Below, one piece after another: positions 1-35,405 of a stretch of DNA of 64,000 nt. Below the pieces are notes generated by a model. It did not search any database. It was not told the DNA's origin and saw nothing but the letters and a program-made list of their open reading frames with translations. Source of the stretch: Chlorobiota bacterium (GTDB lineage Bacteria > Bacteroidota > Ignavibacteria > Kapaibacteriales > NICIL-2); NCBI GenBank assembly GCA_026415505.1, contig JAOAGY010000032.1:294159-358158 (forward strand), in the 5' to 3' direction. A program made the translations under genes and the position numbers. Positions within the stretch are counted from its first letter, which is position 1. The number at the start of each line of letters is the position of its first letter.

Positions 1-587
1 ATCCGCTCGACCAACATCGCCACATCGCACAAGCTGTCGCAACAGTTCAACTCGGTCGGACCGAGAGCGTTGACAGCGGCAGCAACGTCCGATGCTGCGG
101 ACTGATCACGGAAGTTCGAACACGCCTCGACAAGAGCGAACGAACGATCGCTTTTGCGACCATCGAAGATTACTCCGGTGTCGGCGAGGTCATCCTCTGG
201 AGTTCGGTCTATGAGCAGTGTGCCGACATCGTGCGTGATGGTGCGCTCGTCGTCGTCACCGGTAAAATCGAGCTTCGCGACGATACTGCCACGCCACGCA
301 TCGTCGCCGAAGAAGTCATCCCGATCGAGCGCGCCTACGAGCGCATCAAAACGATTCACGTGCGCCTTCCAGCCAATAGCGAGCCGAACATCCTCGACCG
401 CTTGTTCGAGAGCCGCGGCAGCAACGGTGGACGTGTGGACGTGATCGTAACGATATGCGACGGCAACGTCAATCGCTCGCGCTATGCCTTGCCCTCTTTC
501 GCGATGAGTTTGAACCGCCACACGATCGAACAAATCGCACAGCTCGTCGGCGAGGACAACGTTCGAATTTCGACAGCGACACTGTAG
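1..587 (+). CDS. dnaE: DNA polymerase III alpha subunit, C-terminal fragment (5' end lies outside the window)
   Basis: The open frame runs from the window edge to a stop at 585-587. The translation (...VVVTGKIELRDDTATPRIVAEEVIPIERAYERIK...) resembles the C-terminal OB-fold/tail region of DnaE. There is no start codon because the N-terminus is upstream of the window. Confidence 0.6.
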   Translation, partial: PLDQHRHIAQAVATVQLGRTESVDSGSNVRCCGLITEVRTRLDKSERTIAFATIEDYSGVGEVILWSSVYEQCADIVRDGALVVVTGKIELRDDTATPRIVAEEVIPIERAYERIKTIHVRLPANSEPNILDRLFESRGSNGGRVDVIVTICDGNVNRSRYALPSFAMSLNRHTIEQIAQLVGEDNVRISTATL

Positions 588-608
588 TACGACCTTCCTC
601 AATTTCTC

Positions 609-1079
609 ATGCAAACTGACGATACACCCACTGTCGCCAGTGCCGGCATCTGGACGCCGAAGACACCGAATTTCCGCTCGATCATCGAGCAGTGTCTGGA
701 GCGTCAGGAATTCATGAAGCACATCGGCTGCAAACTGACGACCATCGAACCCGGCTACGTCGAGGCACGAATCGTTCTCGATCGGCACCACCAGCAGCAC
801 AACGGTTTGGTTCACGGTGGCGTCATCGCAACGATCGCCGACGTTGTCGCCGGCTTTGCAGCGTACACACTCGTGGATGAAAATCAAACGACAGTGACAG
901 TCGACTTGATGCTGAGTTTCGTCGAAGCCGCGCGCGGCAGCGAACTACGTGCGAGCGGACGCGTGATCCGACACGGAGCCACAACGAGTTTCGCTCGTGC
1001 CGAAGTATATGCCGGCGACAGCAGCCAGCAGCTTGTTGCTATTGCACAAGCGACACTGGCGATACGGAACCTGTCGTAA
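609..1079 (+). CDS. PaaI-family hotdog-fold acyl-CoA thioesterase
   Basis: 156 aa. Carries the HGGV motif (NGLVHGGVIATIADVVAG) typical of PaaI/YbgC 4HBT-like thioesterases. Short intergenic gaps on both sides. Confidence 0.7.
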   Translation: MQTDDTPTVASAGIWTPKTPNFRSIIEQCLERQEFMKHIGCKLTTIEPGYVEARIVLDRHHQQHNGLVHGGVIATIADVVAGFAAYTLVDENQTTVTVDLMLSFVEAARGSELRASGRVIRHGATTSFARAEVYAGDSSQQLVAIAQATLAIRNLS

Positions 1080-1095
1080 CGACTGCTGATCGAGA

Positions 1096-3009
1096 ATGCG
1101 CAAAGCGATACCGGATTGGCTCGAAGCCGCATACGTTCAACCAGTGGAATTGCTCTCCGCCGATGGCGATTCACCGCTCGCTTCCCTTATCGCGCGCGCA
1201 GAAGCGGCGCTCTGTCTTTATCGCTACAGCGATGCACGGACACTGGCGACCGCAATCGCTGCGCATCCGGAGCGACTCGACGAGCGCTATCGGTGCATGT
1301 TGCTGTCACTGACTGCACGGCTACAATTTGCTGTCGGAAGATTTGACGACGCATTCCGCACTTTCGACGAAGCACGCAATTGTGCCGAGCAAAAGCCCGA
1401 ATTTCCTCTTCTGGCATTGCAGTGGGCAACCACTCTCGAGCGGAGCGCACACTATGCCGAGGCGCTCGACTATCTCAGCTCGGCTCTCCGAACGATCGAA
1501 TCTTCCGACGAAGTCGCACTCGCACTGATACGAACAGGCATTGCGAAAATCCAGGTCGTGCTCGGCTATCCGCAAACTGCCCTCGAGACGCTTCGGTACG
1601 ATACGATCGACGACTTCGAAAACACATTCGCGCGCGCACGACTTGCGATAGCAGCCGCCGATGCATTTCTTGCAATGAACGACATCGAACAGGCGATCGA
1701 GCTGCTCCAAGGCGTACAATCGCACACGAACAGTTTTCTCTCGAACGAACGCGAATTACTGTTGGCGACAGCGTATATCACGCGCAACGATTGGGACGAC
1801 GCCGGTTCGATCGCTGAAGCTGTTGCAATGCGATGCGAAGAGCAGCATCTGCCCTATCACGCAGCCCATGCACGGTTGCTCTACGGGCAGGTATTCGCCG
1901 AGAAAACGTCGCCGTATTACAGCCCCCCACTGGCAATCGAGCATTTCAAACGTGCGCTCGATCATATCGCCCCGATTTCTCGATCGGAGCTGGCTGGTCG
2001 CATCTACCGCCAAATCGCGACGATGTACCGAACGATCGGTCATCACGAAAAAGCACTGCAATACTTGCAGGCGTACCTCGAACACGTCGAGCGACTTCAC
2101 TCGCCTCGCACGATGCTCCGCATCAAACGCACCGAAATCGAAATCGCACGGCAGAACTTCGAAATCGAAAGAGCACAGCTACGAGAGCACCAGCATTCAC
2201 TCGAATCGAAGCTTCGCCGAGCCGAGCAAACGGTCGCACACGTCCGCGAGCAAATGGAAGAGCAAATCGCCTATCTCGGCACCGTCGCCCACGACTTGAA
2301 AAACCCGATCGCAGCAATTATGATGAGTGCCGCAATAATCGAACGCTACGGGCATAAACTCAGCAAAGCGGACCTGGACAAACACGTTTCGTCTATCAAG
2401 CAAACAGCCGAATGGATGAAGGAACTCGTGACTGGACTGCTCGATTTTGCTGCACTGACGACAGGCAAGATCAAACTCACCATCGAACCGGTCCACACCG
2501 CTCTATTGTTCGACGTGGTCATCGAAGCGTACAGACTGAAAGCACTCGCAAAATCACTGACGGTCATCAAAGAGTACAGCGACGACGACCTCTACGTACT
2601 CGCCGACAGCAAACGGCTTCAGGAATGCCTCGACAATCTCCTCTCGAACGCGATCAAGTATTCCCCGCTCGGTCGAAACATCTATTGCCGCATCGAACAG
2701 CATGGCGAGATGATCCGACTTTCGATCCGCGACGAAGGTCCTGGACTCTCCGAGGAAGAGCAACGGCGCCTCTTCCAGCAATTCAGCCGCGCCCGATCGC
2801 ACGATACGGGAAAAGAGGGTGGAACCGGTTTGGGCTTGAGCATTGTTCAGCGTTTCGTTCGAGCGATGAACGGCACTGTCGGCTGCGAGAGTTCGATCGG
2901 CAAAGGCAGCACGTTTTTCATCGAGCTGCCGCGAGCAATTCCTCCAACGAAAAATGGCTACCGGCACTCCGAGCAACCGGCACATTCGGCGCAGGCAAGT
3001 AAACCGTAA
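1096..3009 (+). CDS. Sensor histidine kinase with an N-terminal TPR-like domain, probably cytoplasmic (no obvious TM segment)
   Basis: 637 aa. H-box AHDLKNPIAAI. HATPase_c motifs N-box LLSNAIKYSP, DEGPGL and GTGLGLSIVQ. The N-terminal roughly 350 aa are helical TPR-like repeats. No response regulator gene is adjacent. Confidence 0.8.
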   Translation: MRKAIPDWLEAAYVQPVELLSADGDSPLASLIARAEAALCLYRYSDARTLATAIAAHPERLDERYRCMLLSLTARLQFAVGRFDDAFRTFDEARNCAEQKPEFPLLALQWATTLERSAHYAEALDYLSSALRTIESSDEVALALIRTGIAKIQVVLGYPQTALETLRYDTIDDFENTFARARLAIAAADAFLAMNDIEQAIELLQGVQSHTNSFLSNERELLLATAYITRNDWDDAGSIAEAVAMRCEEQHLPYHAAHARLLYGQVFAEKTSPYYSPPLAIEHFKRALDHIAPISRSELAGRIYRQIATMYRTIGHHEKALQYLQAYLEHVERLHSPRTMLRIKRTEIEIARQNFEIERAQLREHQHSLESKLRRAEQTVAHVREQMEEQIAYLGTVAHDLKNPIAAIMMSAAIIERYGHKLSKADLDKHVSSIKQTAEWMKELVTGLLDFAALTTGKIKLTIEPVHTALLFDVVIEAYRLKALAKSLTVIKEYSDDDLYVLADSKRLQECLDNLLSNAIKYSPLGRNIYCRIEQHGEMIRLSIRDEGPGLSEEEQRRLFQQFSRARSHDTGKEGGTGLGLSIVQRFVRAMNGTVGCESSIGKGSTFFIELPRAIPPTKNGYRHSEQPAHSAQASKP

Positions 3010-3109
3010 AATAGCCGTTCCCACCGTGCTCTGCGGCAAAGTACCCGCAACCGAACGTGCCGTAATTTCGCGGTTGCTGGCACTATTCGACACACACTGA
3101 ACGACCTTT

Positions 3110-3457
3110 ATGGCGCTTTACATCACTTCCGATTGCATCAATTGCGGTGCTTGCGAGCCGGAATGCCCGAACACAGCAATTTATGAGCCAGGTTCGACGT
3201 GGACATTGGCTGGTGTCGAATACACCGACTCGACCAGTCCCGGTGGCTTCAAACGCGACTTTTGGTCCGCCGAGTACTACTTCATCGTGCCCGATAAATG
3301 CACCGAGTGCGTCGGCTTTCACGACGAGCCGCAGTGCGCTGCCGTATGTCCTGTGGACTGCTGCTTGCCCGATCCGCTCAATCCTGAAACGCCTGAGCAG
3401 CTACAGGCAAAAGTCGCATATCTCGATTCTATCGATCCCAATCGCCGGCGCCTCTGA
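3110..3457 (+). CDS. Ferredoxin (4Fe-4S/7Fe type)
   Basis: 115 aa. Two cysteine clusters: CINCGACEPECP and CTECVGFHDEPQCAAVCP. Its stop overlaps the start of the next gene by 1 nt (TGATG). Confidence 0.8.
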   Translation: MALYITSDCINCGACEPECPNTAIYEPGSTWTLAGVEYTDSTSPGGFKRDFWSAEYYFIVPDKCTECVGFHDEPQCAAVCPVDCCLPDPLNPETPEQLQAKVAYLDSIDPNRRRL

Positions 3458-4986
3458 TGCCGATCGCATATCAAGGGGAAATCACGATTGTTCGCGGGCG
3501 CATAGCGGCTCTCGATCCGAAACCGGGAGCTGTTGTTCTTCGCCTCGATGGTCGGCGAGTCGAGTTTCCCGATGCATGGGCATTTCCAGGACTGGTCGAC
3601 GCACATGCGCACGTCGTTGGGCTCGGTCTTGCCCAACGCGAGGGCTACCTTCGGGGTGTCGCCTCGAAGGAAGAATGCATCGAACGTGTTCGATCGGCAC
3701 GAACGCAGCGTGGTGAGTGGATTGTTGCTCGTGGGTGGAATCACGAACTGTGGTCACCTCCAGCTTTGCCGTCGGCAGCCGATCTCGACTCGGCATTCCC
3801 CGATGTCCCAGTTGCACTCAAGCGAGTTGACGGTCATGCTTTGTGGGTGAATTCTCGCGCTCTCGAAATCGCAAGCATACATGCTGCGACGCCCGATCCC
3901 CCAGGTGGTGCGATTCTCCGCAGCGACGATGGTCAACCTACCGGCATTTTACTCGACACAGCGATGGAACTCGTCGAGCGTTTCATTCCTCCACCGTCAC
4001 TGGATGACATCGAGAGGGCAATTCTGATCGCGACCGAGCTATGCAGTCGAGCTGGGCTGACGGAAATTCACGACATGGACGTCGAACCGAGCCATTTACC
4101 GATCTTCACAACACTGGCGGAAAACGGTCGGCTTCACTGCCGCATTCTTTCGTGGGTCCGGGGACAGAACCAAGAGTGGCATACCGCTGGGGTTCTCCCG
4201 ACTGTCGGTGAATTGCATCGCGTCGTCGGGGTCAAGCTGTTTGCCGACGGCGCACTCGGCAGTCGCGGCGGAGCACTTCTCGTCGAACCGTACTCGGACG
4301 ATCCGACAACGAGCGGTCTTTTGCTGCTCGACCGCGAAACGATCGTCGCCCGCATCGAGCGAGCGCTCGACGACGGCTTCTCTTCCATCGCAGTCCACGC
4401 AATCGGCGATCGTGCGGTGCGGGTCGTGCTGGACGCGTTCGAAGAGATTCGCAGCCGCTATCCCCACTCCGACGATGTGCGCTTGCGAATCGAACACAGT
4501 CAAATCGTTCATCCCGACGATCTGTCGCGATACGTCAGCGCCGGTGCAATCGCTTCGGTGCAGCCGATTCACTGCACAAGCGATGCAGCGATGGCGCAGC
4601 GCCGGCTCGGAGATCGAACGCGCAATGCGTACCGCTGGCGTTCATTCCTCGATCATGGCGTCCTGCTCTGCGCCGGTTCTGATTTTCCCGTCGAATCGCA
4701 CGATCCACTGCTCGGTATCGAAGCATTCTGCCGACGCATCCCGCCTGGATTCGACACGGCGTGGCATCCTGACGAACGGCTCAGCCGCAGCGATGCACTC
4801 GATGCATACACGATCGGCGCACATCGCGCTGCCGATACGAGCTATCGCCGTGGACGAATCGCGGTCGGTTTGGATGCGGACATAACGATCGTCGATCGCG
4901 ACTTAGAGACCTGCCTGGACGACGAAATCACCGCCACACGTACATTTGCGACCGTCGTTGCCGGAACACTCTACCTGCACGAATGA
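3457..4986 (+). CDS. Amidohydrolase family protein (YtcJ-like, metal-dependent)
   Basis: 509 aa. N-terminal metal-binding HxH (VDAHAHVVGLG). Overall layout resembles the Amidohydro_3 family. Translationally coupled to the genes on either side. Confidence 0.75.
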   Translation: MPIAYQGEITIVRGRIAALDPKPGAVVLRLDGRRVEFPDAWAFPGLVDAHAHVVGLGLAQREGYLRGVASKEECIERVRSARTQRGEWIVARGWNHELWSPPALPSAADLDSAFPDVPVALKRVDGHALWVNSRALEIASIHAATPDPPGGAILRSDDGQPTGILLDTAMELVERFIPPPSLDDIERAILIATELCSRAGLTEIHDMDVEPSHLPIFTTLAENGRLHCRILSWVRGQNQEWHTAGVLPTVGELHRVVGVKLFADGALGSRGGALLVEPYSDDPTTSGLLLLDRETIVARIERALDDGFSSIAVHAIGDRAVRVVLDAFEEIRSRYPHSDDVRLRIEHSQIVHPDDLSRYVSAGAIASVQPIHCTSDAAMAQRRLGDRTRNAYRWRSFLDHGVLLCAGSDFPVESHDPLLGIEAFCRRIPPGFDTAWHPDERLSRSDALDAYTIGAHRAADTSYRRGRIAVGLDADITIVDRDLETCLDDEITATRTFATVVAGTLYLHE

Positions 4987-6173
4987 ACACCGAACGCCAG
5001 GAATGGTTCTACCGTTCTCACTACACCGACGAACGATACCATCGGCTGCGTCAATTGCTCGAGCAGCGGCTCGGTACACGCATCGAGTTTCGCATCATGG
5101 AAGCACCGGTGTTTCTCTCCGACGAGTTGCGCCGGTCAATCGCCGATGCAGCAATCGCTCTCGTCGAGCAGTGCACTGAGAAATCGTACCTTTCGCATGC
5201 AATCGAACGCGCTATTCCTCCGCGATATCGCATGCCGGATATTCCGCCACATCCGACGTGCGCCGTGGTGGATTTTGCGATTTCACAAGCCGATGGCGAG
5301 CTCGTGCCGCGTTTGATCGAGTTGCAAGGATTCCCCTCGCTCTTTGCGTATCAGCTATTTCTGACCGATGCGTATCACGACGCCTACGAGCTACGTGAGG
5401 AGTTTTCACCGTTTTTCGATCCGTCGCTCGATCGCAACGAATATCGCAGGATTTTGGAACGGTGGCTGATCGGGAACCATCACCCCGACAACACCGCACT
5501 GGTTGACTACAAACCGCTCGAGCAAAAAACCTATCCTGATTTCGCTGCCACAGAACTGCTCACTTGCATGGCACCGACCGACATTGGCGGCATCGTCGAA
5601 CGCGACGGATACCTTTTCCACGAACGCGGCGGAGCGTTGCAACCGCTCCGTCGGATTTACATGCGCGCAATAACCGACGAATTGGAAGAGCGCGGTGTCG
5701 AGGTGCCGTTTTCCTGGAACGATCCGCCGCACGTCGAGTGGGTCGTTCACCCGAATTGGTATTTCCTGATGAGCAAGTACTCGCTGCCGTACTTGCATCA
5801 TCCGACCGTGCCACGCGCGCTGTTTTGCGACACAATCGAACGTTTGCCCACCGATGTACGCTACGTGTTGAAGCCGCTTTTCGCATTCGCGGGAAAGGGT
5901 GTCAACGTCGAACCGACCGACGACGATTTGCGTGCACTCTCTCCCGACGAGCGCCGCAATTGGCTGGCGATGGAAAAGGTCGAGTACGCTCCTGCTTTGC
6001 CGACTCCCGAAGGGGCGAATTACGTCGAGGTACGGTGCATGGTGATTTGGGAAGAAGGAAGCCGCCCACGTCCGGCGATGTCGCTCGTGCGGACAGGTCG
6101 TTCGAAGCTGATGGGATCGCGCTATTTGACGCTACCGTGGACGGGCGCTTCGATTTGTTTTTTCGAGCAATAG
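4983..6173 (+). CDS. Hypothetical protein, possibly an ATP-grasp-like acid-amine ligase (circularly permuted or GspS/YgiC-like architecture). Low confidence on function.
   Basis: 396 aa. ATGA overlap with the upstream amidohydrolase. Near the C-terminus there is a K-loop-like segment (YVLKPLFAFAGKGVNVEP) reminiscent of the ATP-grasp B-domain. No other family signature recognised. Confidence 0.45.
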   Translation: MNTERQEWFYRSHYTDERYHRLRQLLEQRLGTRIEFRIMEAPVFLSDELRRSIADAAIALVEQCTEKSYLSHAIERAIPPRYRMPDIPPHPTCAVVDFAISQADGELVPRLIELQGFPSLFAYQLFLTDAYHDAYELREEFSPFFDPSLDRNEYRRILERWLIGNHHPDNTALVDYKPLEQKTYPDFAATELLTCMAPTDIGGIVERDGYLFHERGGALQPLRRIYMRAITDELEERGVEVPFSWNDPPHVEWVVHPNWYFLMSKYSLPYLHHPTVPRALFCDTIERLPTDVRYVLKPLFAFAGKGVNVEPTDDDLRALSPDERRNWLAMEKVEYAPALPTPEGANYVEVRCMVIWEEGSRPRPAMSLVRTGRSKLMGSRYLTLPWTGASICFFEQ

Positions 6174-6177
6174 CGGC

Positions 6178-8073
6178 TCACTCCAGGTAGGTGTAGCCGT
6201 ACAGCCCCGACCGATACATTGCCAGAAATTCCTTCCCTTCGTGGAGCGTGACCAAATTCTCTTTGACCGCTTGCATCACCCACGTCTCCATCGTGCGCAC
6301 AAGACGCTTGGCGGAGAACTGCACGTAGTCGAGCACGTCTTCGACCGTCTCGCCTTCGATGATTTGGTCGATCCAATAGCTGTCTTCGTCGCAGACGATG
6401 TGAACGGCGTTCGTATCGCCGAAGAGATTGTGCAAATCGCCGAGAATTTCTTGGTATGCGCCGACCAAGAACACACCGATGTAGTACGGCTCCCCTTCCC
6501 GCAAGTCGTGCACCGACAGATAAGGCATCGTTTCGCGAATGCCGATGAACCGATCGATGCGACCGTCGCTGTCGCAGGTGATGTCGTGAAGTGTCGCACG
6601 TCGCAACGGCTTTTCATTGAGCCGCTGCAGCGGCATGATCGGAAAGAGCTGATCGATAGCCCACGAATCGGGTAGCGACTGAAACAGCGAAAAGTTGCAG
6701 AAATACTTGTCGGCGAGCAGCTTCGGCAGCACGCGCAATTCATCGGGAATGTGCCGAAATTCTTGCGCGTAGCGATTGACCGTCGTCGCGATACTCCAGA
6801 ACAATCGCTCGACTTTCGCTCGCGATCGAAGGTCGAACAATCCGAGCGCAAACAGTTCGAGCGACTCCTCGCGAAGCTGGAGTGCATCGTGCCACACCTC
6901 CATGATCGTGCGCGGCGAAACGTTGTTGAGCAGTGTGTAGAGTTCGCGCACGATTTCGTGGTCGTTCGGCTCGATCGTGTGGAGTGTGTCGTCCCACAGC
7001 GGCGTCGTCGCCGTTTCCAGCACGTTGAACACCAACACCGAATGGTGTGCAGTCAATGCGCGTCCTGCTTCGGTGATGACGTGTGGATGCGGCAGTTGAT
7101 GCTTGTCGGCGGCATCGAGGAGCGTAGCAATCGCGTCGTTGGCGTATTCTTGAATCGAGTAGTTGATGCTGCTTGCCAGCGTCGTCCGCGAGCCGTCATA
7201 ATCCACGCCCAAGCCACCGCCGATGTCCACGTATTCGATGGCACAACCGAGCCGGTGCAATTGCACGTAGAATTGAGCGACCTCGCGCAGCCCCGCTTTG
7301 ATTTTGCGGATGTTGGTGATTTGCGAGCCGAGATGGAAGTGAATCAATTTCAGCCAGGAAAGAATTCCCTCCTGTCGCGCCAGCTCGACCGCTTCCAGCA
7401 GTTCGCTCGCATTGAGACCGAATTTGCTTTGATCGCCGCCGGATTCCTCCCACTTGCCGCTGCCGCTTGCCGCCAGTCGTATGCGAATACCGACGTTCGG
7501 CACGACATTGAGCCGCCGCGCAATGTGAACGATGAGCTTCAGTTCGTTGAGTTTTTCGACGACGAGGAAAATTTTTTTGCCCATTTTGTGTGCCAGCAGC
7601 GCCAGCTCGATGAAGTCTTCGTCCTTGTAGCCATTGCAGATGATGAGTGCTTCGGGATTGTCCATGATGGGCAAAACGGCATGCAACTCCGGCTTGGAGC
7701 CAGCTTCCAAGCCGATGTTGAACTTCTTGCCGTAGCGGACGATTTCCTCGACGACCGGACGCTGCTGGTTGACCTTGATCGGGTAAACGTTGTAGTACTT
7801 GCCGTTGTAGCCGTACTCGGCGCGCGCGCGTTCGAAGCAGCCACTGATTTTCTCGATGCGATGATCGAGGATGTTCGGAAAACGCAAAAGCACTGGCGGA
7901 TTGATGTCCTTGAGCGCCAGTTCGTCCATCAACTCGCGAATGTCTATTGCCGGTCCGTTGTCCTTTCGCGGACGAACGACGACGTTGCCCTTTTCGTTGA
8001 TGCCGAAATAGCCGATACCCCAGCCGGCGATGTTGTAAAGTTCAGCCGAATCCTCGACACGCCACGTTCTCAC
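6178..8073 (-). CDS. speA: Biosynthetic arginine decarboxylase
   Basis: 631 aa. N-terminus MRTWRVEDSAELYNIAGWGIGYF and PLP-fold core (NVYPIKVNQQRPVVEEI...) match SpeA. The length is typical. Confidence 0.9.
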   Translation of the reverse strand: MRTWRVEDSAELYNIAGWGIGYFGINEKGNVVVRPRKDNGPAIDIRELMDELALKDINPPVLLRFPNILDHRIEKISGCFERARAEYGYNGKYYNVYPIKVNQQRPVVEEIVRYGKKFNIGLEAGSKPELHAVLPIMDNPEALIICNGYKDEDFIELALLAHKMGKKIFLVVEKLNELKLIVHIARRLNVVPNVGIRIRLAASGSGKWEESGGDQSKFGLNASELLEAVELARQEGILSWLKLIHFHLGSQITNIRKIKAGLREVAQFYVQLHRLGCAIEYVDIGGGLGVDYDGSRTTLASSINYSIQEYANDAIATLLDAADKHQLPHPHVITEAGRALTAHHSVLVFNVLETATTPLWDDTLHTIEPNDHEIVRELYTLLNNVSPRTIMEVWHDALQLREESLELFALGLFDLRSRAKVERLFWSIATTVNRYAQEFRHIPDELRVLPKLLADKYFCNFSLFQSLPDSWAIDQLFPIMPLQRLNEKPLRRATLHDITCDSDGRIDRFIGIRETMPYLSVHDLREGEPYYIGVFLVGAYQEILGDLHNLFGDTNAVHIVCDEDSYWIDQIIEGETVEDVLDYVQFSAKRLVRTMETWVMQAVKENLVTLHEGKEFLAMYRSGLYGYTYLE

Positions 8074-8100
8074 GCCTTGCCCTACCTCCGACGAATGTGA

Positions 8101-9879
8101 TCAATGAACAACAATGAGCGGAAGCACCGTCGCCGACGAATCGCTTTCGATGCGCACGAAATAGGCGCCCGACGGCAACGCGCTGCATTCGATGGGAATC
8201 ACTCGTATCGAACCGGCGACAGTTCCATCGGCGTACAGTGCAAGCGCCTTTCCTGTCGCGTCGAGCAACGTTGCGCGGAGCCGAACCGGTGCGAGCGCTT
8301 CGACTTCGATGAACGCACGATCGCTCGCAGGATTCGGACCGATGCGCACTGGCTGTCGAGCAGTTTCACCGACGCTGGCGAGCACGTCCGACAAACGGAT
8401 GCGTACCGTCACCGGAAGATGGTCGCTGACAGTCGTGGTATAGCTCGACAAAAACGCATTCGGTGCTTCGAGGTACGTTCGATGAATCGCGCCGAAAAGC
8501 TCGTTCGAAACGATGATGTGATCGAGCATTCGCGCATTGACTGTCGAACCGATGTACGATCGCAGACCCAGCTCGCTCATCGGTTTGGTCAGAACGCGCC
8601 AATTGGCTGTATCCTCGATGAAGACCGCATAGGGCGTCGGATTTGGCGTTACGACCGACGAGGTCACATCGTCGTTGAAATCACCCAGCACGATGACCGG
8701 ATCGTTGGCGTAAAACGTGTTCAGGTAGTCGTGAAACGTTTCGGCATCCGTCTTGCGACGCTGCCAGTCGTCTTGCGCTGTCGTCGAATCGCCGGTCGCT
8801 TTTGCATGGATGTTGAAGAGCAGAATTTTTCGTTCGACGCCACCGACGGTGCATCGCGCCGTCATGCGAAACGGGAAACGCCCGCTCGCCCAGGCTTGCG
8901 AGCCGCCGTTGACGGCAAGCCCCGACTCGACGACCGCTGCTGTCGCATTGTTGACCAGGTACGCCATCTTCTGCTGTTGCTCGATCGGCGCGAGCAACCC
9001 GGTGTACGAACCTTGCACCGATCCGGCGAGACTATCGAGGACCGATGCAGTGACGACTTCTTGGAATGCGTAGATGTCCGACCGCATCGAATCGAGCGCC
9101 ATGCGAACGCTGTTGAACTGACGCTGCTTGTTCGATACACCGAGCGTCGTATCGGTCGAGCCGAACCACAGAAGATTCCACGTCGTCACATCGAGCGTCG
9201 CATCTTTCGGTACCGTGTCACGCTCGATGGTCGAAGCGACGTCCGTCGCAAAGCGCGGCAGGAGCTGATACGTCCCGCGAAACTGCGAGATGACACCGAC
9301 GACGTCGATCCGCCCGGTCGGGATCGGCAAACTGTTGCGCGCGATTTCCGTGTTCGCATCCACTCGCACCTGAAGCTGATCGCCAGCGGCACTGCGAACG
9401 TTGTAATTGCGATCGCCTTGGAATACGCCTGTTTCGACAAATTCGACGTTCCGCACACGAACGAGCATCCCTTCGAGCGCCTCGCCGATCGATGGAATCG
9501 AGCTTGTTCGCGGCGTCGGCTCGACGCGTGGAACAGGAATGACTTGAAAGGCGACCTGTCCGGTAATTTCGGCTAAACCTGTCCCGGATTGCCCGGTCGT
9601 TTGACCGAATTCCGTGAGAGTGCCGCCGAGAATTTCGACCGAATCGCCGATTTGCACACCCATTCTGAACGCACTGTTGAAGACGGCGATCCCGCCGGTG
9701 GCATCTTGGATGTAGCTGGTGTTGCGAAATTGATCGGCTACGGTAACCCGCCCGGCGATTCGCTCACCAGCGCGGATCGAATCACCGAAAGGACGTTGCT
9801 TGAATTGTGCAATGGTGATGTACGTCTGCGACCATGCCGTCGCTGCTACGAGAACGAGTGCGAATAGAAAGTGTTTCAT
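8101..9879 (-). CDS. Secreted endonuclease/exonuclease/phosphatase (EEP) family protein with an N-terminal beta-rich binding domain and a T9SS C-terminal sorting domain
   Basis: 592 aa. Signal peptide MKHFLFALVLVAATAWSQ. EEP core motifs (TWNLLWFG..., LGDFNDD, SDHLPV). C-terminal roughly 80 aa has a T9SS type-A sorting-domain pattern (...GAYFVRIESDSSATVLPLIVVH). Confidence 0.75.
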   Translation of the reverse strand: MKHFLFALVLVAATAWSQTYITIAQFKQRPFGDSIRAGERIAGRVTVADQFRNTSYIQDATGGIAVFNSAFRMGVQIGDSVEILGGTLTEFGQTTGQSGTGLAEITGQVAFQVIPVPRVEPTPRTSSIPSIGEALEGMLVRVRNVEFVETGVFQGDRNYNVRSAAGDQLQVRVDANTEIARNSLPIPTGRIDVVGVISQFRGTYQLLPRFATDVASTIERDTVPKDATLDVTTWNLLWFGSTDTTLGVSNKQRQFNSVRMALDSMRSDIYAFQEVVTASVLDSLAGSVQGSYTGLLAPIEQQQKMAYLVNNATAAVVESGLAVNGGSQAWASGRFPFRMTARCTVGGVERKILLFNIHAKATGDSTTAQDDWQRRKTDAETFHDYLNTFYANDPVIVLGDFNDDVTSSVVTPNPTPYAVFIEDTANWRVLTKPMSELGLRSYIGSTVNARMLDHIIVSNELFGAIHRTYLEAPNAFLSSYTTTVSDHLPVTVRIRLSDVLASVGETARQPVRIGPNPASDRAFIEVEALAPVRLRATLLDATGKALALYADGTVAGSIRVIPIECSALPSGAYFVRIESDSSATVLPLIVVH

Positions 9880-9901
9880 CGAAGGACGCCTTTTTTGTGA
9901 A

Positions 9902-10591
9902 TCATTGAACTTCTCGGAGAAACCAGCGCTGCTCTACGCTCGCGCCGATGCGGACATCGTGCACGAAAAGGTAGTAGCATTTACCGCGTTCCAAAACTAC
10001 GGTGCTATCGGTACCGATCGGTATGTTGCGATCGGCATCGAGCACGCGAAGACGAACGTTGCCGGCATCGAGTGGCACCAGCGGCAAGATCGTCTGCGCA
10101 TCCACGATGGGCAACGCCAGCGGTGCGTCGTTGGCTTCGACGGTGACGAACGTTTCTTCCGACGCATTGACGATCTTGATCGCGGCGCGGTCGGCAAAGG
10201 GACTTTGCGTCGTATCCACGATCGGTCGGAGAAAGTCGGTGATCGTTGCTCCACGAACGACGATCGTGTACGACTGCCCATCAGCCATGACGTACCGCTG
10301 CGAGGCAATACGGACAGGCGTTGTATCGGTTGTGCTGTAGGCTTCGAGAAGCACGTACGTGCCGGACGGCACCGAAATCGGTTCGCTGAATTGCCCCACA
10401 TCGAGCGACCGAACGACATCGGCACTATCGGCGACGATACGGAGCGGTCCGGTTTTCGTTTGTGCGTTGAACACTCGCACGTAGGCAGTTCCACCGGTGA
10501 AGGTGACGACGCCATCGGTGCAGCCGACAAGCACTGTGGCAACGACTGCGAGTGTCAGAAGGTAACGCGGAGTCCGACTTGCATGCGCCAT
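9902..10591 (-). CDS. DUF4397-like lipoprotein
   Basis: Start trimmed to the internal Met (MAHASRTPRYLLTLAVVATVLVGC, a lipobox-like LVGC) because the full ORF would run deep into the receptor gene. Repetitive beta-strand segments resemble DUF4397. Overlaps the 3' end of the upstream TonB-dependent receptor by about 37 nt. Confidence 0.55.
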   Translation of the reverse strand: MAHASRTPRYLLTLAVVATVLVGCTDGVVTFTGGTAYVRVFNAQTKTGPLRIVADSADVVRSLDVGQFSEPISVPSGTYVLLEAYSTTDTTPVRIASQRYVMADGQSYTIVVRGATITDFLRPIVDTTQSPFADRAAIKIVNASEETFVTVEANDAPLALPIVDAQTILPLVPLDAGNVRLRVLDADRNIPIGTDSTVVLERGKCYYLFVHDVRIGASVEQRWFLREVQ

Positions 10592-13500
10592 CGTGAAAAG
10601 AACGAATCGGTGTCGTAGATACCAGGCTTGCCGTTCGAATTCGTCGGCGACGAATACGAAATACGCAAACGCCCTTGCGCATCGAATGGTGTATTCGTCG
10701 TCGGATCGTTGACGAGTGTGATGAGGCGATAGCTTTGGAAGTTGACGTACTGTTGCAGCCCCCACGAGCTGTTGAGCAAATTGAGCACGTTCTGCACATC
10801 GACCGTCAGCTCCAGCCGCGTTCCACCGAGCGAGGGGAGTTGCTGCACGAATCGAACGTCGAGTTGATGAATCCACGGCTCGCGCATCGAATTGCGTGGG
10901 AGCACCTGCCCGCGGTACCGCCGCAGGACGCTATTGGCTTCGATGAAATCCATCAGTTGTTTCCAAATCTGATCGGCTGTTCGCAAATCGACACCGCCCG
11001 GCGGGACGACCACAATTCGCGTTCCGTAATCTTCCGGTCGGGGGACGTAGATGAGGTCGTTGTACGTCAGCAGATCGCCGTTGTAGTCGCCGATGTATGT
11101 GAAGCTGTAGGGTCTGCCTGAATTGCCAGTGTAAAAGATTCCAAGTGTCGTTGTGAGATTTTCGATGAGTCGCGTGCGGTAGAACAGGCTGATCGTGATT
11201 CGATGCGGCACGTCGAAGTTCGAGCGACCGAGTGTCGCACGGTTCGGATCGGTTGCGTCGGTGTTTTGCCAATTCGAGAGCGCTGTCGCTGCGGTCGCAT
11301 CCGCCAAGTCGTAGGTTGCCGAATAGACATACGACACTGTCCCGCTCAAACCGCGCAGGATGGGATTGTTTTCCTGAAGCGATAGCGAAAGCATGCCGCT
11401 GTACTGATAGCCTTCGTTACGACTGGCTAAGAGGATGACTTGCGTGAATTCGGGTGCGGCGTTCGAGTCGGTCCGTCCCGCCGGCGAACGCGCATACATG
11501 GGACGACCATCGAGCGGCGAAAACGGCATCGCCAGCGAGCGTCGCAAGTTGATATTGCGGAATTCAACCGTGTTGAGCATTTGCCCGTACATCAGCTCGC
11601 TCGTCAGGCGGAGCCACGGCTGTAGCTGCACGTCCACACCGAGCGTCGAACGCCACACTTGCGGAAAGCGGAAGTTCGGATCGGTCACATTGATTTGGGT
11701 CGTCGCGATCGGCTGACCGGGGAAACCTGGATCGCCCGGCTTCGGCGGATTGAAGGGATCGAGCGTCACTCGAAGCGGCACATTCGGCGAGTCCAGTCGC
11801 ATCAGCAGTGGCGCATTGGCATCGTTGTCGCGACCGATGCTGACGCGATAGAGGTCGACGCCTGTGTTGCTGTACTGGTTCGAAAGCCACACAGCCGGCA
11901 CCCGACCGCTGAAGATGCCCGTACCGCCGCGAATCTGAATCGTGCGATCGCCGGTAACGTCGTAGTTGAAGCCGACGCGTGGTGCCCACAGCGGACGCGC
12001 ATCGGGCAAGCGGCTTGTCCGCAAACCTGCGGGGATTTCCTGGTAGTAGCGCTTGAGCGTGTCGGGCAATGCTGCATAGACGCGCGCCAGCGAATCGAAC
12101 CGTGCCGCAAACGCGGGGTTGTCGTAGGGACGGTCGAAGTAAACCGGCACATCCGCACGCAGTCCGAACGTCACGCGCAATTGCGAGGTAACGTTCCATT
12201 CATCCATCGCGTAGATGCCGCCTTGCATCATTCCCCACCGAGCCCGCGGCTGCCGATCGCCGCCCGTTGCGCTCAGATTGGCGTAGCTGACCTGGTAAAA
12301 ACTCGGTGTTCGGTCGCGCAGTGCTTGGACGTCGCGAAATGTGTAGCTGCCGAAAAAGTCGGGGATGAAAAGGTTGTTGAAGCGATACAACTCGTTGTGC
12401 GTACCGATCGTGACGGTGTGGTCGCCGAGAAAAATCGAAAAGTCGTTGGTGATTGCCAGTTGCGATTGATCGAGCGCGTTGGCTTGGGAATTCCGCTCGG
12501 GACCAAAGACGACCTGGTCTGCTCCGAGCATGACTTTGACTTGCGGAAACGGATCGGCACGCAAGACGCGCTCGTCGTTGGTTTGCGTCCACGCAATGCG
12601 GAATTCGTTCGACATGTTCTCGCCCCAAATCGAATTCCATTGCAGCACCGTCGAATTATTGATGCTGCGGAATTCGTTCCACTGACTCGACAGCGAGAAC
12701 ACCTGCCGTGTGCGCAGCACGTTCCGATCCTGGAAAGCGTTGGTGTAGTTGTGGCGGAGTTGCAGCTTGTGGCGATCGGAGATGTTCCAATCGAAGCGAG
12801 CGATGATGTTGAACGTGTTGTTGCGCGAGACGAACAAATCGGCGGTGCCTGGATCGTAGCCGTACACCTCGCGGACCGTGCGAACGATGTCGTCGAGTTC
12901 GGCTTTGCTGTGCGGGAAATTGTTGAGCGCAGCAGGATTGTTCAGCGCGATTTCGAGCGGACGATTGCGGAGCCGCGTTTCGGTCGTTACGTGGAAAAAC
13001 AACCGATCCCGGACGATGGGACCACCAAGGCGCGCTCCGAACTGCGCATCGCTGAACTGGGCGTATGGCTGCCGGAGCGCATCCGGACTCGGTCCGACCA
13101 GGAGCTGATTCCGACCGAAGACGAACGCCGATCCTCTGAACGTATTCGTTCCACCGCGCGTGACGGCATTGATCAGTCCGCCGGTGAAACCGCTTTGGCG
13201 TATGTCGTAGGGCGAGATGTTCACCTGCAGTTCTTCGATCGCATCGAGCGAGAGAAGATTCGCATTGGCTTGGCTGCCCGCGGTTCCTGCTTGACCGAGA
13301 CCGAAAATGTCGTTGGCGATCGCCCCGTCGATCTGAATGTTGTTGTAGCGAGAATTCGAGCCGAGTATGCTGATGCCTTGCAAGCCGTCGTCGGCACCGA
13401 ACGCGGTTGTTTGTGTCGCATACGGATTGACCCGTGCGATGTCCGACAGTGAGCGATTGATTGCGGGCAGTGACGCGATCTCGTCGGACGACACCGTTCC

Positions 13501-23663: not shown

Positions 23664-24412
23664 CGGTCGTTCAGCATTCGAACACGGACTTGCCACTGCG
23701 CAAAATACTGCATCCACAGCGAGCGGCAAATCGTCGCGTCGGCAACGAGCAACAGTGCACCGATCGAACCGGCGAGCACGATACCGCTCCGTAGCGCAAC
23801 GACCGTGAAAAACGCGATCACACTGACCCCGACTGCATGCGACATGCGATGGACGCTGCTGCTGGTGCGAAGCGGCAACATCGCTACGAAGCTGACCAGG
23901 AACCACCCGACGAAATTCACCAGCGGAACGCCGTAGTAGAACCCCGCTTGATCCCACACCCACAACGTCATCGGTCCGATCGCCACGGGGTCAACGAGCA
24001 GGTCGTAGAGCATCATTGCCAGCGCTCCGATTGCGCGTGCAATCCAACGACGCTCGGTCAGCAGCGTTGCCCACGTCCAAGCATACGCCAAGAGAACGAG
24101 CCACGCTGCGACCATCACCAGCGGTACACCAGCGATCGCCAGTCCGAGTGTGTCGGTGTAGTGGTAGTGTCCGAACGGCACACCAGTCGCCACGCCGATG
24201 ATCTCGCTTGCAAAGCCGATAAGAGCACCGACGAGCAGCCGCAGAAACTGAGGATGCCGATGCACGACGATCACGCCTGCTGCAATCCACAGAAACAGCA
24301 TTTCGCCGTACCGGCGCAGTACTCCGACATCGCTTTCTGCAGCGCTTGTAAGCGCTCCGCCGACCAGGAGAACAACGAACAACCCGACCAGCAGCCTACG
24401 CACTCCGTTCAT
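23660..24412 (-). CDS. cruF: Carotenoid biosynthesis membrane protein (DUF422 / CruF-like carotenoid 1',2'-hydratase family)
   Basis: About 250 aa polytopic membrane protein inside the carotenoid operon. Sequence resembles the Caroten_synth/DUF422 family, which includes CruF. Start set at the internal Met (MNGVRRLLVGLFVVLL). Confidence 0.6.
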   Translation of the reverse strand: MNGVRRLLVGLFVVLLVGGALTSAAESDVGVLRRYGEMLFLWIAAGVIVVHRHPQFLRLLVGALIGFASEIIGVATGVPFGHYHYTDTLGLAIAGVPLVMVAAWLVLLAYAWTWATLLTERRWIARAIGALAMMLYDLLVDPVAIGPMTLWVWDQAGFYYGVPLVNFVGWFLVSFVAMLPLRTSSSVHRMSHAVGVSVIAFFTVVALRSGIVLAGSIGALLLVADATICRSLWMQYFAQWQVRVRMLNDR

Positions 24413-25871
24413 ACCGCTCGATGAGCTCGTACACCAACTTCGACGAAAGCACCACCATCGGCGTACCGCCACCGGGATGCGTACTGCCACCGACGTAGTA
24501 CAACCCCCGCACACAACGATCGCGCATCGGCGGTCGAAGGAATGCCGTGCGATACGAATGCGACGCCCATCCGTAGATCGAGCCACCCGGCATTGCGTAA
24601 TCGCGCTCGAATCGTTCCGGCGTCCATACCGAGCGCACGACGATATCGCTTTCGGCGATCGCGATACCGCGCCGTTCCAACACGCCAGCGATGCGCTCCC
24701 AGATCATCGGGATTGCATCCTCCCAACGCCGCGATTCGACAGCAGGAGCATTCGCCATCACGAAAAGCGTTTCTCCCCCTGGCGGTGCGACTGTGGGATC
24801 GGTTTTGCTGGTGACGTTGAGATAGACGGTCGGTTCGGTGGGAAATTCCGCCCGCTCGAACAACTGCTCGAACTCCCGCCGATAGTCGCTCGAAAAGGCG
24901 ATCGTGTGATGAAAAACGTCCGGCGGCAGCCGACGGCGTAAGCCGAGCAAAAACACCACGCCCGACATCGAGCGCTGGTAGAATCGCCGCCGCCGTGGCA
25001 GATCGAGCAGCGCATCGGCAGTCGTCGCATCGCCGTTGAACACCACCACATCGGCATCGAACATGTCTCCGCCAGAGAGCCGCACTCCACGGACGCGCCC
25101 GCTGCTGTGCACAATCTTTTCGACCGTTGCATTCGTCAGGATGCGCACTCCTCGCTCGCGCAAAGCACCGACGATCGTTTCGACGATGCCGTACAAACCG
25201 CCCTCGACGTACCATCCGCCGTGGGCGAACTCCAAGTACGGAATCACCAGCAACGTCGCGGGCGAACGATACGGCGATGACCCCACGTAGGTCGGATAGC
25301 GCTCGAAAATCTGCCGCAAATACGGACTCGAAAGATGACGCTCGACGGTCGCGGCATAATTGCCCCACGCATTCCGCAACGGCAGCCAATGCAACGATCG
25401 AACAAGCGAGAAAATCTGGTTCGGCTCGGGCAGTTCGGTCGGCACCGACTGGAAAAACGTTCGCGTCGAAAGTTCGAAAAGGTCGGCTGCAGTAGCCATC
25501 AGCTTCCAGTAGCCCTTTCCGCCGTCGGCTTCGTAGCGTTCGAGCATCGCCGCGATCGACGGGAGCGGACCCGGATATTCGATGCGTTCGCCGTCGGCGA
25601 AGCGGTACTGTGTCAGTGGCTGGAGCCTGCGAAAAACCAAATGCTGCCGAGAAACGCCGCAACGATCGAGCAAATCGGTAAAAACATGCGGCAGCGTGAT
25701 AAGCGACGGTCCCGTATCGAAGCGAAATCCGTCGGCAGCAAAAAGGTTCATCTTTCCGCCCGGCGAGCTGCTGCGCTCCAGTAGCGTCACGTTCCAGTCG
25801 TCGCTGGCTGCCCGCAAGGCGAGCGACAATCCTCCGAGACCGGCACCGACGACGATCATGCGCTTTTTCAT
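24396..25871 (-). CDS. CrtI-family carotenoid desaturase (CrtD-like, possibly a 3',4'-desaturase)
   Basis: FAD-binding N-terminus MKKRMIVVGAGLGGLSLA and GPSLI motif. About 491 aa. It is the second CrtI paralog in the operon. Confidence 0.8.
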   Translation of the reverse strand: MKKRMIVVGAGLGGLSLALRAASDDWNVTLLERSSSPGGKMNLFAADGFRFDTGPSLITLPHVFTDLLDRCGVSRQHLVFRRLQPLTQYRFADGERIEYPGPLPSIAAMLERYEADGGKGYWKLMATAADLFELSTRTFFQSVPTELPEPNQIFSLVRSLHWLPLRNAWGNYAATVERHLSSPYLRQIFERYPTYVGSSPYRSPATLLVIPYLEFAHGGWYVEGGLYGIVETIVGALRERGVRILTNATVEKIVHSSGRVRGVRLSGGDMFDADVVVFNGDATTADALLDLPRRRRFYQRSMSGVVFLLGLRRRLPPDVFHHTIAFSSDYRREFEQLFERAEFPTEPTVYLNVTSKTDPTVAPPGGETLFVMANAPAVESRRWEDAIPMIWERIAGVLERRGIAIAESDIVVRSVWTPERFERDYAMPGGSIYGWASHSYRTAFLRPPMRDRCVRGLYYVGGSTHPGGGTPMVVLSSKLVYELIERYERSA

Positions 25872-26986: not shown

Positions 26987-27717
26987 GCTGCATCGAACAC
27001 GATCGGTGCGACTTTTTCCGGTGCTTCGTCGAGCAACAGGTGTCCAGCACCTGCGATGCAGAACACATCAGCGCGCTGTAGCGTGCGTTGCCACGTCGGT
27101 ATCGAACGCCGCACGGCTCGGAACGTCCGCTCGCCGTACACCAACGCCACCGGAACGTTCACGTTGCGGTATCGTTCGGGTCCGGGCAATCGTGCCAGTG
27201 CTTTGAGATATGCGCGCGTGGACTGTGCGCTTTTATCGGCGAACGACGCCATCAGGTCGGATCGCTCGGTTCGACGCATGCGAAGAGCAGCGTTGACGAT
27301 CCGCCGCCCCAACGACGAATCGAACGTCAGGCGATAGGCAATGGAACCGATCGGTTCGCTCGTAAAAAAGCGGAAATACCACGGCATGTAGGCGAAGAGA
27401 TCGAGTGCAACGATACGCACAATGTGCTGCGGCACGAGCAACGCCACTTCGAGCGCCAGAACTGCACCGCTGCACGAGCCGACGATGACGACATCGCTCG
27501 CCAACGTCTCGACGATTGTCGCAAGCGATTCTGCCACACATTCGATGCTGAATCGTTCGATCATCGGCGAGGAACCGTAGCCCGGCAAATCGGGCGCAAG
27601 CAAGCGCCACGTGTTCGGTACGAACGGACGTAGCGGTGCGAACGTTCGATGGTCGCCGCCCCAGCCGTGCAGCCCGAAAGCGATCTGCGACCCGCTACCG
27701 TACTCGACGACGTGCAT
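26983..27717 (-). CDS. Alpha/beta-hydrolase-fold protein with a G-S-C-S-G nucleophile box (Cys at the nucleophile position). Candidate acyltransferase or esterase of the carotenoid operon.
   Basis: 245 aa from the internal Met MHVVEYGSGSQIAFGLHGWGG. Nucleophile-elbow sequence IVGSCSGAVLA. C-terminal GAGHLLLDEAP (probable catalytic His). The ORF-track N-terminal extension overlaps crtI and is rejected. Confidence 0.65.
   Translation of the reverse strand: MHVVEYGSGSQIAFGLHGWGGDHRTFAPLRPFVPNTWRLLAPDLPGYGSSPMIERFSIECVAESLATIVETLASDVVIVGSCSGAVLALEVALLVPQHIVRIVALDLFAYMPWYFRFFTSEPIGSIAYRLTFDSSLGRRIVNAALRMRRTERSDLMASFADKSAQSTRAYLKALARLPGPERYRNVNVPVALVYGERTFRAVRRSIPTWQRTLQRADVFCIAGAGHLLLDEAPEKVAPIVFDAA

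Positions 27718-30231: not shown

Positions 30232-35405
<5,174 letters not shown>

Follow-up and report, generated by a model that had tools for sequence, protein, structure and literature searches.

What does a ferredoxin, an amidohydrolase and a protein of 396 amino acids (aa) named only "hypothetical" do together, when their genes follow one another with overlapping start and stop codons and converge on an arginine decarboxylase gene? This arrangement lies near one end of the stretch of 64 kb analyzed here (the window). The original suggestion was that the three genes form a pathway of amide-bond remodelling, with the 396-aa protein as a possible GspS-like ATP-grasp ligase, the ferredoxin as a redox carrier and polyamines, through the neighboring speA, as a possible connection. 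We examined the genes, the fold and putative active site of the 396-aa protein and the conservation of the neighborhood.

Three coupled genes and the block upstream of them

The list of open reading frames (ORFs) has genes at 3110-3457 (+, 115 aa), 3457-4986 (+, 509 aa) and 4983-6173 (+, 396 aa), followed by a convergent one at 6178-8073 (-, 631 aa), and together with the junction sequences it confirms the two overlaps and the convergence noticed at the outset. Ferredoxin and amidohydrolase meet in ...CTC TGATG CCG..., with the TGA at 3455-3457 and the ATG at 3457-3459, and amidohydrolase and ligase in ...CGA ATGA ACA..., with the ATG at 4983-4985 and the TGA at 4984-4986, while 4 nt separate the stop codons of the ligase gene and speA. 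Thousands of homologues were found for each of the three ORFs, which are, as judged from sequence, real genes. Overlaps of 4 nt occur in three other codirectional gene pairs as well, and because the window is this compact, the overlaps alone are weak evidence; what counts is their conservation in distant relatives.

The identities proposed for the ferredoxin, the amidohydrolase and speA also held. The first gene of the transcription unit (3110-3457, +) encodes a 2[4Fe-4S] ferredoxin of the YfhL family (Alvin type), which scores 101 bits against the NCBIfam equivalog NF033683 (cut-off of 86), matches the Fer4 family in Pfam and carries two four-cysteine motifs in its translation, C9-x2-C12-x2-C15-x3-C19-P and C64-x2-C67-x8-C76-x3-C80-P, with an insertion of ca. 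35 aa between them. The second (3457-4986, +) matches PF07969 (Amidohydro_3) with 278.8 bits (E 1.7e-82) and encodes a YtcJ-like, COG1574-type binuclear-metal amidohydrolase. Its metal ligands of the HxH/Lys/His/His/Asp type (H50, H52, K260, H314, H347 and D409) are invariant, the predicted structure, with database homologues as alignment input, is a confident TIM-barrel model, and the enzyme is catalytically complete in its predicted active-site residues. The YtcJ-like Amidohydro_3 hydrolases of solved structure (PDB 3igh and 3icj) are themselves uncharacterised, and for this reason no substrate can be transferred to the amidohydrolase of the window. The convergent speA (6178-8073, -) matches NF003763, biosynthetic arginine decarboxylase, with 883.7 bits and was judged not to be part of the transcription unit.

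A promoter-like block, GCCGTAATTTCGC (3059-3071, +), is located 39 nt before the ferredoxin ATG. It has no second copy in the window, and when the intergenic regions of four relatives are aligned, it alone is invariant while the rest has diverged. The TAATTTCG within it (3063-3070) has one mismatch to TAnnTTTG, the -7 promoter consensus of Bacteroidota, and each of the 13 triad loci examined has a TAnnTT[T/C]G motif 27 to 72 nt 5' of its ferredoxin gene. We infer that GCCGTAATTTCGC is a promoter and that the unit is cotranscribed from a promoter of the TAnnTTTG type. A sigma-70 promoter scan, which does not cover Bacteroidota-type promoters, gave no match, terminator-like sites were at background level only, and Rfam models at E ≤ 1 detected neither a riboswitch nor another RNA over positions 1-12000.

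Fold and putative active site of the 396-aa protein

The family of the 396-aa protein (4983-6173, +) is large, with more than 5,800 clusters at 90% identity and 865 at 50%, all of them named "hypothetical," and ranges over Kapaibacteria, Ignavibacteria, other Bacteroidota-type lineages and soil Acidobacteriota. As a GspS-like ATP-grasp ligase, the protein lived up to expectation in its fold, the order of its motifs, its lysines and its glycine loop, but not in a significant profile match nor in the Arg and Asn of the catalytic hairpin. It matched nothing in Pfam or NCBIfam; GSP_synth (PF03738), GSH_synth_ATP (PF03917) and CP_ATPgrasp were not found even at E ≤ 10, let alone above their gathering thresholds. 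Faint matches appeared among 39 relatives, to GSP_synth in 10 (best E of 0.028) and to GSH_synth_ATP in 6 (best E of 0.04). Against all PDB sequences, phmmer and a profile of 39 sequences returned chance matches only (E ≥ 0.39), and hhalign comparison to YgiC, alone or with YjfC and Gss, gave E values of 5e-4 to 2.6e-3 at a probability of just 12 to 31%, an alignment that we used for motif mapping and not as proof of homology. No sequence profile put the protein significantly into an ATP-grasp family.

In whole-chain superpositions, on the other hand, the predicted structure fits the permuted ATP-grasp clade, and classical ATP-grasps much less well; the closest solved structure is YgiC, with GspS second. 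According to this model, the protein has the permuted ATP-grasp fold of GspS, YgiC/YjfC, Cp1B and eukaryotic glutathione synthetase, and we annotate it as a predicted carboxylate-amine ligase. The motifs come in the permuted order, D97 and E113/Q115 first and then K265, K297 and G304-K305-G306, as do residues 318, 330/332, 498, 533 and 539-540 of GspS. In the low-probability alignment, D97 corresponds to D318, E113/Q115 to E330/N332, S264-K265 to N497-K498, VLK297P to AVK533P and AGKG to GRCGS; the roles of the GspS residues we take to be those given in UniProt P0AES0. These mapped catalytic residues are 96 to 99% conserved in 194 family members, down to ca. 27% identity.

The K-loop that had been recognized near the C terminus, YVLKPLFAFAGKGV (residues 294-307; nt 5862-5903, +), was borne out as the ATP-binding lysine (K297) and a glycine-rich mobile loop (G304-K305-G306), aligned by hhalign with YAVK533PIAGRCGSN of GspS and YVVKPIFSREGAN of YgiC. 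K297 is present in 190, G304 in 189 and G306 in 188 of the 194 members, and conservation of the two lysines and the glycine loop amounts to 97 to 98%. Model confidence (pLDDT) dips at residues 301-310 (to 74), as expected of a mobile lid loop at the glycine loop, and at residues 371-380. D97 and E113-L-Q115 (nt 5271-5327, +, located by hhalign and the model) correspond to the Mg/acyl-phosphate hairpin of GspS, R-x-D...E-x-N, and lie on strands formed by residues 93-103 and 106-115 of the model; hhalign pairs VVDFA with SRLDLA and IELQG with LENNAD. This hairpin is incomplete, its Arg being absent and its Asn replaced by Gln. D97 and E113 are each found in 190 of the 194 members and Q115 in 186; position 95, the equivalent of the Arg, is V, I, A, T or Q and never predominantly Arg, and this strand contains no Arg at any position (consensus PLF-S-V-V-D-F-A).

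Since the transition-state Arg is missing, the protein might combine an ATP-grasp fold with kinase/phosphotransferase activity or other ATP-grasp chemistry. This would agree with the residues at position 95, equivalent to GspS R316 and Cp1B R139, and with the change of Asn to Gln; the Arg is likewise absent from ATP-grasp kinases, ITPK1 for example. Nevertheless, we consider such an activity very unlikely.

The protein differs from each of the known systems of similar fold. E. coli YgiC and YjfC (PDB 7uka, 7uk8 and 7uk6) are 16 to 17% identical to it, with no significant sequence-profile match; their R-x-D and E-x-N become V-V-D and E-L-Q in the 396-aa family, and their gene partners are DUF1190/TolC instead of an amidohydrolase. 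E. coli Gss (PDB 2io7) carries its hydrolase as an N-terminal domain of the CHAP (papain-like) type on the same polypeptide as the synthetase, whereas the 396-aa protein has no such N-terminal domain and the hydrolase of the window is a separate, unrelated TIM-barrel metallo-amidohydrolase, joined by translational coupling only. Eukaryotic-type glutathione and homoglutathione synthetases (PDB 2hgs, 1m0w and 3kaj), with 450 to 480 aa, extra elements and 11 to 13% identity, have a different catalytic hairpin, and a GCS2 gene is absent from the window. Nor does the protein match the Pfam CP_ATPgrasp models of circularly permuted ATP-grasp type 2 (Mfla_0391, PDB 3n6x), a family that usually sits with alpha-E and transglutaminase-like genes, none of which was seen at the window locus. 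Finally, Cp1B of the fungal E-64 pathway (PDB 9cjn) has R139, D141, E163 and N165, which are required for activity, alanine at the corresponding hairpin residues abolishing or strongly lowering it (PMC12568646), while the 396-aa family lacks the Arg and the Asn.

Conservation of the gene neighborhood

The triad recurs in at least eight further lineages of the Kapaibacteria/Ignavibacteria type. The order ferredoxin-amidohydrolase-ligase was found with changed flanks at loci L088, L012, L014/L109-111, L091, L092, L094 and L121 and in part at L105 and L005, the latter with amidohydrolase and ligase only on a contig that ends upstream. Ligase identity at the changed-flank pair loci is 45 to 52% (34% over a partial match at L094), and in the ligase tree these loci are divided between two separate subclades. 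The start-stop overlap between amidohydrolase and ligase is retained in 9 of the 10 loci examined, as ATGA or GTGA or with 8 to 11 nt, and wherever the pair has enough upstream sequence, a ferredoxin gene comes first, with the next gene at -1 to ca. +110 nt. The triad is not family-wide, being absent from 77 of the 80 genome loci, and most members of the ligase family have no amidohydrolase beside them, including all those of Acidobacteriota and many of Kapaibacteria. Co-occurrence of the three genes, as originally predicted, is a feature of only one Kapaibacteria/Ignavibacteria/Bacteroidota-type clade, but does not extend to Acidobacteriota or many other Kapaibacteria.

It could be argued that the three genes have no function in common and are neighbors only through genome compactness, with the ligase alone acting on a housekeeping substrate. 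The window is rich in short gaps and 4-nt overlaps, the ligase turns up beside a variety of unrelated genes (a sigma factor, LysR, RuvX, SpoIIE and MetG), and amidohydrolase homologues of 33 to 48% identity occur without it. We find this quite unlikely, as the order and overlap of amidohydrolase and ligase outlast full turnover of the flanks at 45 to 52% identity, in at least eight lineages and two subclades.

The ferredoxin does not seem to be specific to the pathway, as had been proposed. All 8,000 candidates scored were homologous at E ≤ 1e-10, identity across lineages is 62 to 97% (at least 62% in the best 120 of the 8,000), and at L112-L119 the ferredoxin occurs without the pair: beside gcvP, beside a metallo-beta-lactamase/Rieske/QueG set or in a 4HBT-kinase-ferredoxin-EndoIII arrangement, which retains the upstream synteny of the window. 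This ferredoxin is very abundant and slowly evolving, and is probably a general electron carrier. The link to polyamines through speA is not supported either. Only at L085-L087, L089 and L090 does speA adjoin the triad. These loci are syntenic throughout the region, with a ligase of 73% identity, whereas none of the 80 genome loci has speA, nor does any more distant triad locus.

One pathway of all three proteins that remodels polyamine conjugates, as GspS and YgiC do, with a functional link to speA, is unlikely in our view. It would explain why YgiC, a peptide-spermidine ligase, is the nearest of the solved structures, followed by GspS (PMC11762307), why the ferredoxin leads every pair locus with enough upstream sequence and why speA converges on the triad, in the window as in its closest relatives. 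Yet at ligase identities of ≤52% the speA adjacency is lost and the triad persists, the ferredoxin belongs to a huge, highly similar family found elsewhere without the pair, and no electrons are required by either of the two reactions, hydrolysis of an amide or ATP-grasp ligation. Both ferredoxin and speA are probably bystanders to the amidohydrolase/ligase module.

Other contexts of the ligase are different. In Terriglobia it is the last gene of another cluster, which also holds two further ligases and a pair of hydrolases, its neighbors including an M29-like peptidase, GCS2 and a RimK-like ATP-grasp; a literature search found no report of this type of cluster. Elsewhere its context is an MFS transporter or an SSF-symporter fusion. 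A small-molecule amide as substrate would fit these contexts of hydrolases, other ligases and transporters. NlpC/P60 proteins upstream of some ligases, considered as analogues of a cytoplasmic Gsp amidase, were downgraded since they resemble MepS-type murein endopeptidases, and the gene upstream of the ligase at L006, a true adenine deaminase equivalog, was not counted as a partner hydrolase.

The ligase might also perform a second step like that of glutathione synthetase in a ribosome-independent small-peptide/thiol pathway, in which a GCS2 ligase would supply a gamma-glutamyl dipeptide, or one like it, for extension by a further residue, with the amidohydrolase of the window as a degradative or trimming partner. 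This appears rather unlikely, given that GCS2, M29-like and RimK-like homologues were found neither in the 64-kb window, which has no esterase homologue either, nor at Kapaibacteria-type loci. Moreover, a deep split in the ligase tree sets the Terriglobia clade apart from the Kapaibacteria-type one, because of which the substrates of the two may differ.

A putative synthetase/amidase-like pair

We favor, at a probability of about 0.6, the reading that the amidohydrolase and the translationally coupled ATP-grasp ligase are a conserved synthetase/amidase-like pair acting on one small amide, a two-gene module carried along downstream of what is probably the promoter of a ferredoxin gene of general use. 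In the 396-aa protein, Mg-ATP would most likely be bound between the lysines K265/K297, the glycine-rich loop and the hairpin with D97, E113 and Q115. The enzyme would then phosphorylate the carboxylate of its substrate to an acyl-phosphate, which attack by an amine would turn into the amide, with release of ADP and Pi. We infer this chemistry, and likewise that the substrate is shared, the amidohydrolase most likely acting on the same metabolite. It might cleave the ligase product, in which case the pair would be analogous, though split and non-homologous, to the bifunctional Gsp synthetase/amidase. Alternatively, it might free an acid or amine that the ligase re-ligates. The amide in question would be small and cytoplasmic, a conjugate of an amino acid or a peptide. 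As precedents, YgiC and YjfC are peptide-spermidine ligases (PMC11762307) and Cp1B is an acid-amino acid ligase (PMC12568646).

The family, missed by Pfam and NCBIfam, can now be given a fold and, as its probable chemistry, the ATP-dependent formation of amide bonds, a testable annotation for thousands of genes. Its natural ATP-grasp site without the canonical Arg and Asn informs which residues the mechanism requires, and the ferredoxin and speA illustrate how arguments from the neighborhood in a single genome can mislead. Both the synthetase/amidase pair described here and the five-gene, three-ligase cluster of Terriglobia point to an undescribed amide metabolite. It is conceivable, if doubtful, that this represents an undescribed class, an amide-linked small peptide or conjugate such as a new low-molecular-weight thiol or osmolyte. 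Its assembly would need neither ribosomes nor NRPS but, in Terriglobia, up to three different ATP-dependent ligases, and in Kapaibacteria a dedicated synthetase/amidase pair would cycle it. The ATP-grasp site would be one in which other residues have taken the place of the universal transition-state Arg and the Mg-binding Asn. If so, coexpression with the ferredoxin could tie the level of the metabolite to the redox state.

Genes and junctions of the locus

The locus comprises a YfhL-family 2[4Fe-4S] ferredoxin (3110-3457, + strand, 115 aa; NF033683, 101 bits, cut-off 86), an Amidohydro_3 enzyme (3457-4986, + strand, 509 aa; PF07969, E = 1.7e-82), a 396-aa ORF (4983-6173, + strand), hereafter the ligase, and the convergent gene for biosynthetic arginine decarboxylase, speA (6178-8073, - strand, 631 aa; NF003763, 883.7 bits). 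The family scans and the junction sequences, TGATG at 3455-3459 (ferredoxin/amidohydrolase) and ATGA at 4983-4986 (amidohydrolase/ligase), bear out the gene identities, coordinates and overlaps of the original prediction. On their own, the overlaps carry little weight, because the window is compact and contains three other co-directional gene pairs with 4-nt overlaps. The stop codons of the ligase and speA are 4 nt apart (6171-6180; 19 to 37 nt in relatives) and no terminator-like hairpin was found in the gap; each convergent transcript must therefore end inside the opposite gene or overlap it.

Elsewhere in the window, a 1,008-aa protein with two amidohydrolase-family matches (Amidohydro_1 and Amidohydro_3; 30232-33258, - strand) is encoded by a gene overlapping that of an NAD-dependent DNA ligase (33255-35384) by 4 nt. 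Two PF01593 flavin amine-oxidoreductase-family genes (24396-26165 and 27695-29401, both - strand), ca. 20 kb from speA, could encode carotenoid desaturases or amine oxidases.

Fold and active site of the 396-aa protein

Pfam and NCBIfam scans of the ligase gave no match, and an identical protein was already in the database as a hypothetical protein from a Chlorobi-bacterium MAG. The homologue search retrieved 5,883 clusters at E ≤ 1e-3, in none of which a Pfam domain was present and all named ones of which were "hypothetical"; an exhaustive HMMER search gave 865 clusters of the family at 50% identity. PDB sequence searches with the single sequence or a 39-sequence profile found nothing, and faint matches to Pfam GSP_synth (best E = 0.028) and GSH_synth_ATP were obtained with 10 and 6 of the 39 relatives, respectively. 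The alignment-based AlphaFold model was confident (pLDDT of 93.5 and pTM of 0.92), and Foldseek independently placed the permuted ATP-grasp clade at the top (E values of 9e-14 to 1e-5, TM of ca. 0.6), followed by a sharp fall. The guess of a GspS/YgiC-like, effectively permuted ATP-grasp protein was right at the fold level by structure, although the profile search proposed as its check, taken alone, would have counted as a refutation.

Catalytic motifs were mapped with hhalign against YgiC alone or YgiC with YjfC and the Gss synthetase domain, three E. coli proteins that keep all the mapped positions. VVD97FA aligned to SRLD102LA of YgiC (R316-x-D318 of GspS), IE113LQ115G to LE115NN117AD (E330-x-N332), S264-K265 to N497-K498 of GspS, VLK297P to AVK533P and AG304KG306 to the E. 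coli glycine loop; the roles assigned to the GspS residues follow UniProt P0AES0. The model places D97 and E113/Q115 on the two strands of a single hairpin (93-103 and 106-115), and low pLDDT is confined to two conserved glycine-rich loops, as would be expected of mobile lid loops. Among 194 full-length family members, down to ca. 27% identity, D97, E113, K265, K297, G304, G306, E349, R351, R370, R224 and R228 are each kept in 186 to 192. However, V, I, A, T or Q takes the place of the R-x-D Arg throughout the family, and Gln that of the hairpin Asn in 186 of the 194. Alanine in place of R139, D141, E163 or N165 of Cp1B abolishes or strongly lowers its activity (PMC12568646). Since Cp1B depends on R139 and N165, the counterparts of the Arg that the family lacks and the Asn that it replaces, this is a real active-site variant. 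Non-ligase chemistry is a rival reading of this variant. Within its known superfamily, the ligase stands for a new family of divergent sequence whose catalytic hairpin is altered.

Conservation of the pair and its neighbors

In relatives with 73% ligase identity, synteny extends over the entire region (dnaE, thioesterase, TPR histidine kinase, ferredoxin, amidohydrolase, ligase, convergent speA and EEP nuclease), which makes synteny at that distance uninformative. At 45 to 52% ligase identity, the ferredoxin-amidohydrolase-ligase triad is kept, while both flanks are wholly different and speA is absent. The flanks are an SBP gene upstream and Lon downstream in locus L088, a TonB receptor and a thioredoxin-like gene in L014/L109-111, and again unlike those of the window in L012, L091, L092, L094 and L121; L005 and L105, truncated by their contigs, are further supporting loci. 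The amidohydrolase/ligase start-stop overlap (ATGA, GTGA or 8 to 11 nt) was kept in 9 of 10 loci examined, the sole exception being L088 with a 48-nt gap. In a neighbor-joining tree of 95 ligases, triad loci fell into two distinct subclades within the Kapaibacteria/Bacteroidota-type half, mixed with other contexts, which argues for an old association with later losses. A rival reading is that the genes are unrelated neighbors. The amidohydrolase adjoins the ligase in only 3 of 80 genome loci, each locus from a different species. The predicted co-occurrence therefore holds across changed flanks but is not family-wide. Four contigs with a Kapaibacteria- or Acidobacteriota-type locus (L012, L032, L069 and L081) are labelled Hyphomicrobiales, Bifidobacteriaceae, Acetobacteraceae and Patescibacteria; probably the MAG labels are wrong or the contigs mis-binned.

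A polyamine/redox pathway, as originally proposed from speA and the ferredoxin, fared poorly. speA is gone from the more distant triad loci and adjoins the ligase in none of the 80 genome loci; it is an incidental neighbor. The ferredoxin is abundant (at least 8,000 homologue candidates scored, all at E ≤ 1e-10, the best 120 at 62 to 90% identity) and more conserved than the enzymes, being 72 to 77% identical in loci whose amidohydrolase and ligase are only ca. 45% identical. Beside 3 of 4 homologues sampled for context the pair was missing: one is followed by gcvP, another by a metallo-beta-lactamase, Rieske protein and QueG set, and the third (L117:1468-5150, 77% identical) has the same run of 4HBT thioesterase, TPR histidine kinase and ferredoxin as the upstream part of the window locus, with endonuclease III replacing the amidohydrolase and ligase. 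A pathway-specific redox carrier is thus not supported, and a functional redox link with the pair is neither needed nor indicated. The 115-aa form, common to Kapaibacteria and Ignavibacteria, has a ca. 35-residue insertion between its cluster-binding motifs (residues ca. 26 to 62; 3185-3295) and, beyond the second motif, an additional Cys-Cys pair (C84, C85).

All 13 triad loci (the window, L012, L014, L085, L086, L088, L089, L091, L092, L094, L105, L109 and L121) and 2 of 3 others carry the motif TAnnTT[T/C]G 27 to 72 nt ahead of the ferredoxin start. The window copy, TAATTTCG (3063-3070), falls within the sole invariant block of the intergenic alignment with close relatives. The motif agrees with the Bacteroidota -7 promoter consensus, and from sequence we infer that transcription of the pair starts at the promoter of a general ferredoxin gene.

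The ligase family in other settings, and its likely role

In ca. 50 of the 80 genome loci, from Terriglobia and relatives, the ligase is the last gene of a conserved co-directional cluster of five, after an alpha/beta-hydrolase, a divergent RimK-like ATP-grasp (TIGR00768, E = 5.8e-6; no Pfam match), a GCS2 carboxylate-amine ligase (NF010039, 560.6 bits) and an M29-like peptidase. One example is L018:199-6173, with ca. 50 others including L020, L021, L023 and L028 (Terriglobia and related Acidobacteriota). The cluster's three ATP-dependent amide ligases and two hydrolases suggest a ribosome-independent peptide pathway not described before. A rival reading takes the ligase as a GS-like step in a peptide pathway; none of the cluster's other genes was found within the 64-kb window. 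In some Kapaibacteria/Ignavibacteria, the ligase is flanked by genes for a MepS-like NlpC/P60 murein endopeptidase and an MFS transporter (L009:7142-10575, L010:46-3474, L001:5029-7212 and L007:1769-4362), which would fit cell-wall peptide recycling too. In a Thermochlorobacter-like lineage, it is fused to an N-terminal sodium:solute symporter (PF00474) in two 870-aa sequences (P0128/P0391, ligase domain at residues 505-868; at least six contigs). Other homologues (P0124, P0136, P0144, P0148 and P0158) carry N-terminal extensions of 160 to 190 aa with no Pfam match. The recurring amide hydrolases, extra amide ligases and solute transporters fit a small-molecule amide substrate, without giving its identity.

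YgiC and YjfC act as peptide-spermidine ligases, though which substrates they use physiologically is unknown (PMC11762307). The ligase is structurally at least as near to glutathione synthetases or Cp1B as to YgiC, which leaves no basis for assigning it an amine specificity. The evidence best supports a module in which an amidohydrolase and an ATP-grasp ligase are translationally coupled and act on some small amide; this module would be expressed behind a housekeeping ferredoxin gene and parallels the Gsp synthetase/amidase in its logic of synthesis plus hydrolysis. Its value is moderate, chiefly a gain in annotation and a lead towards an undescribed metabolite.
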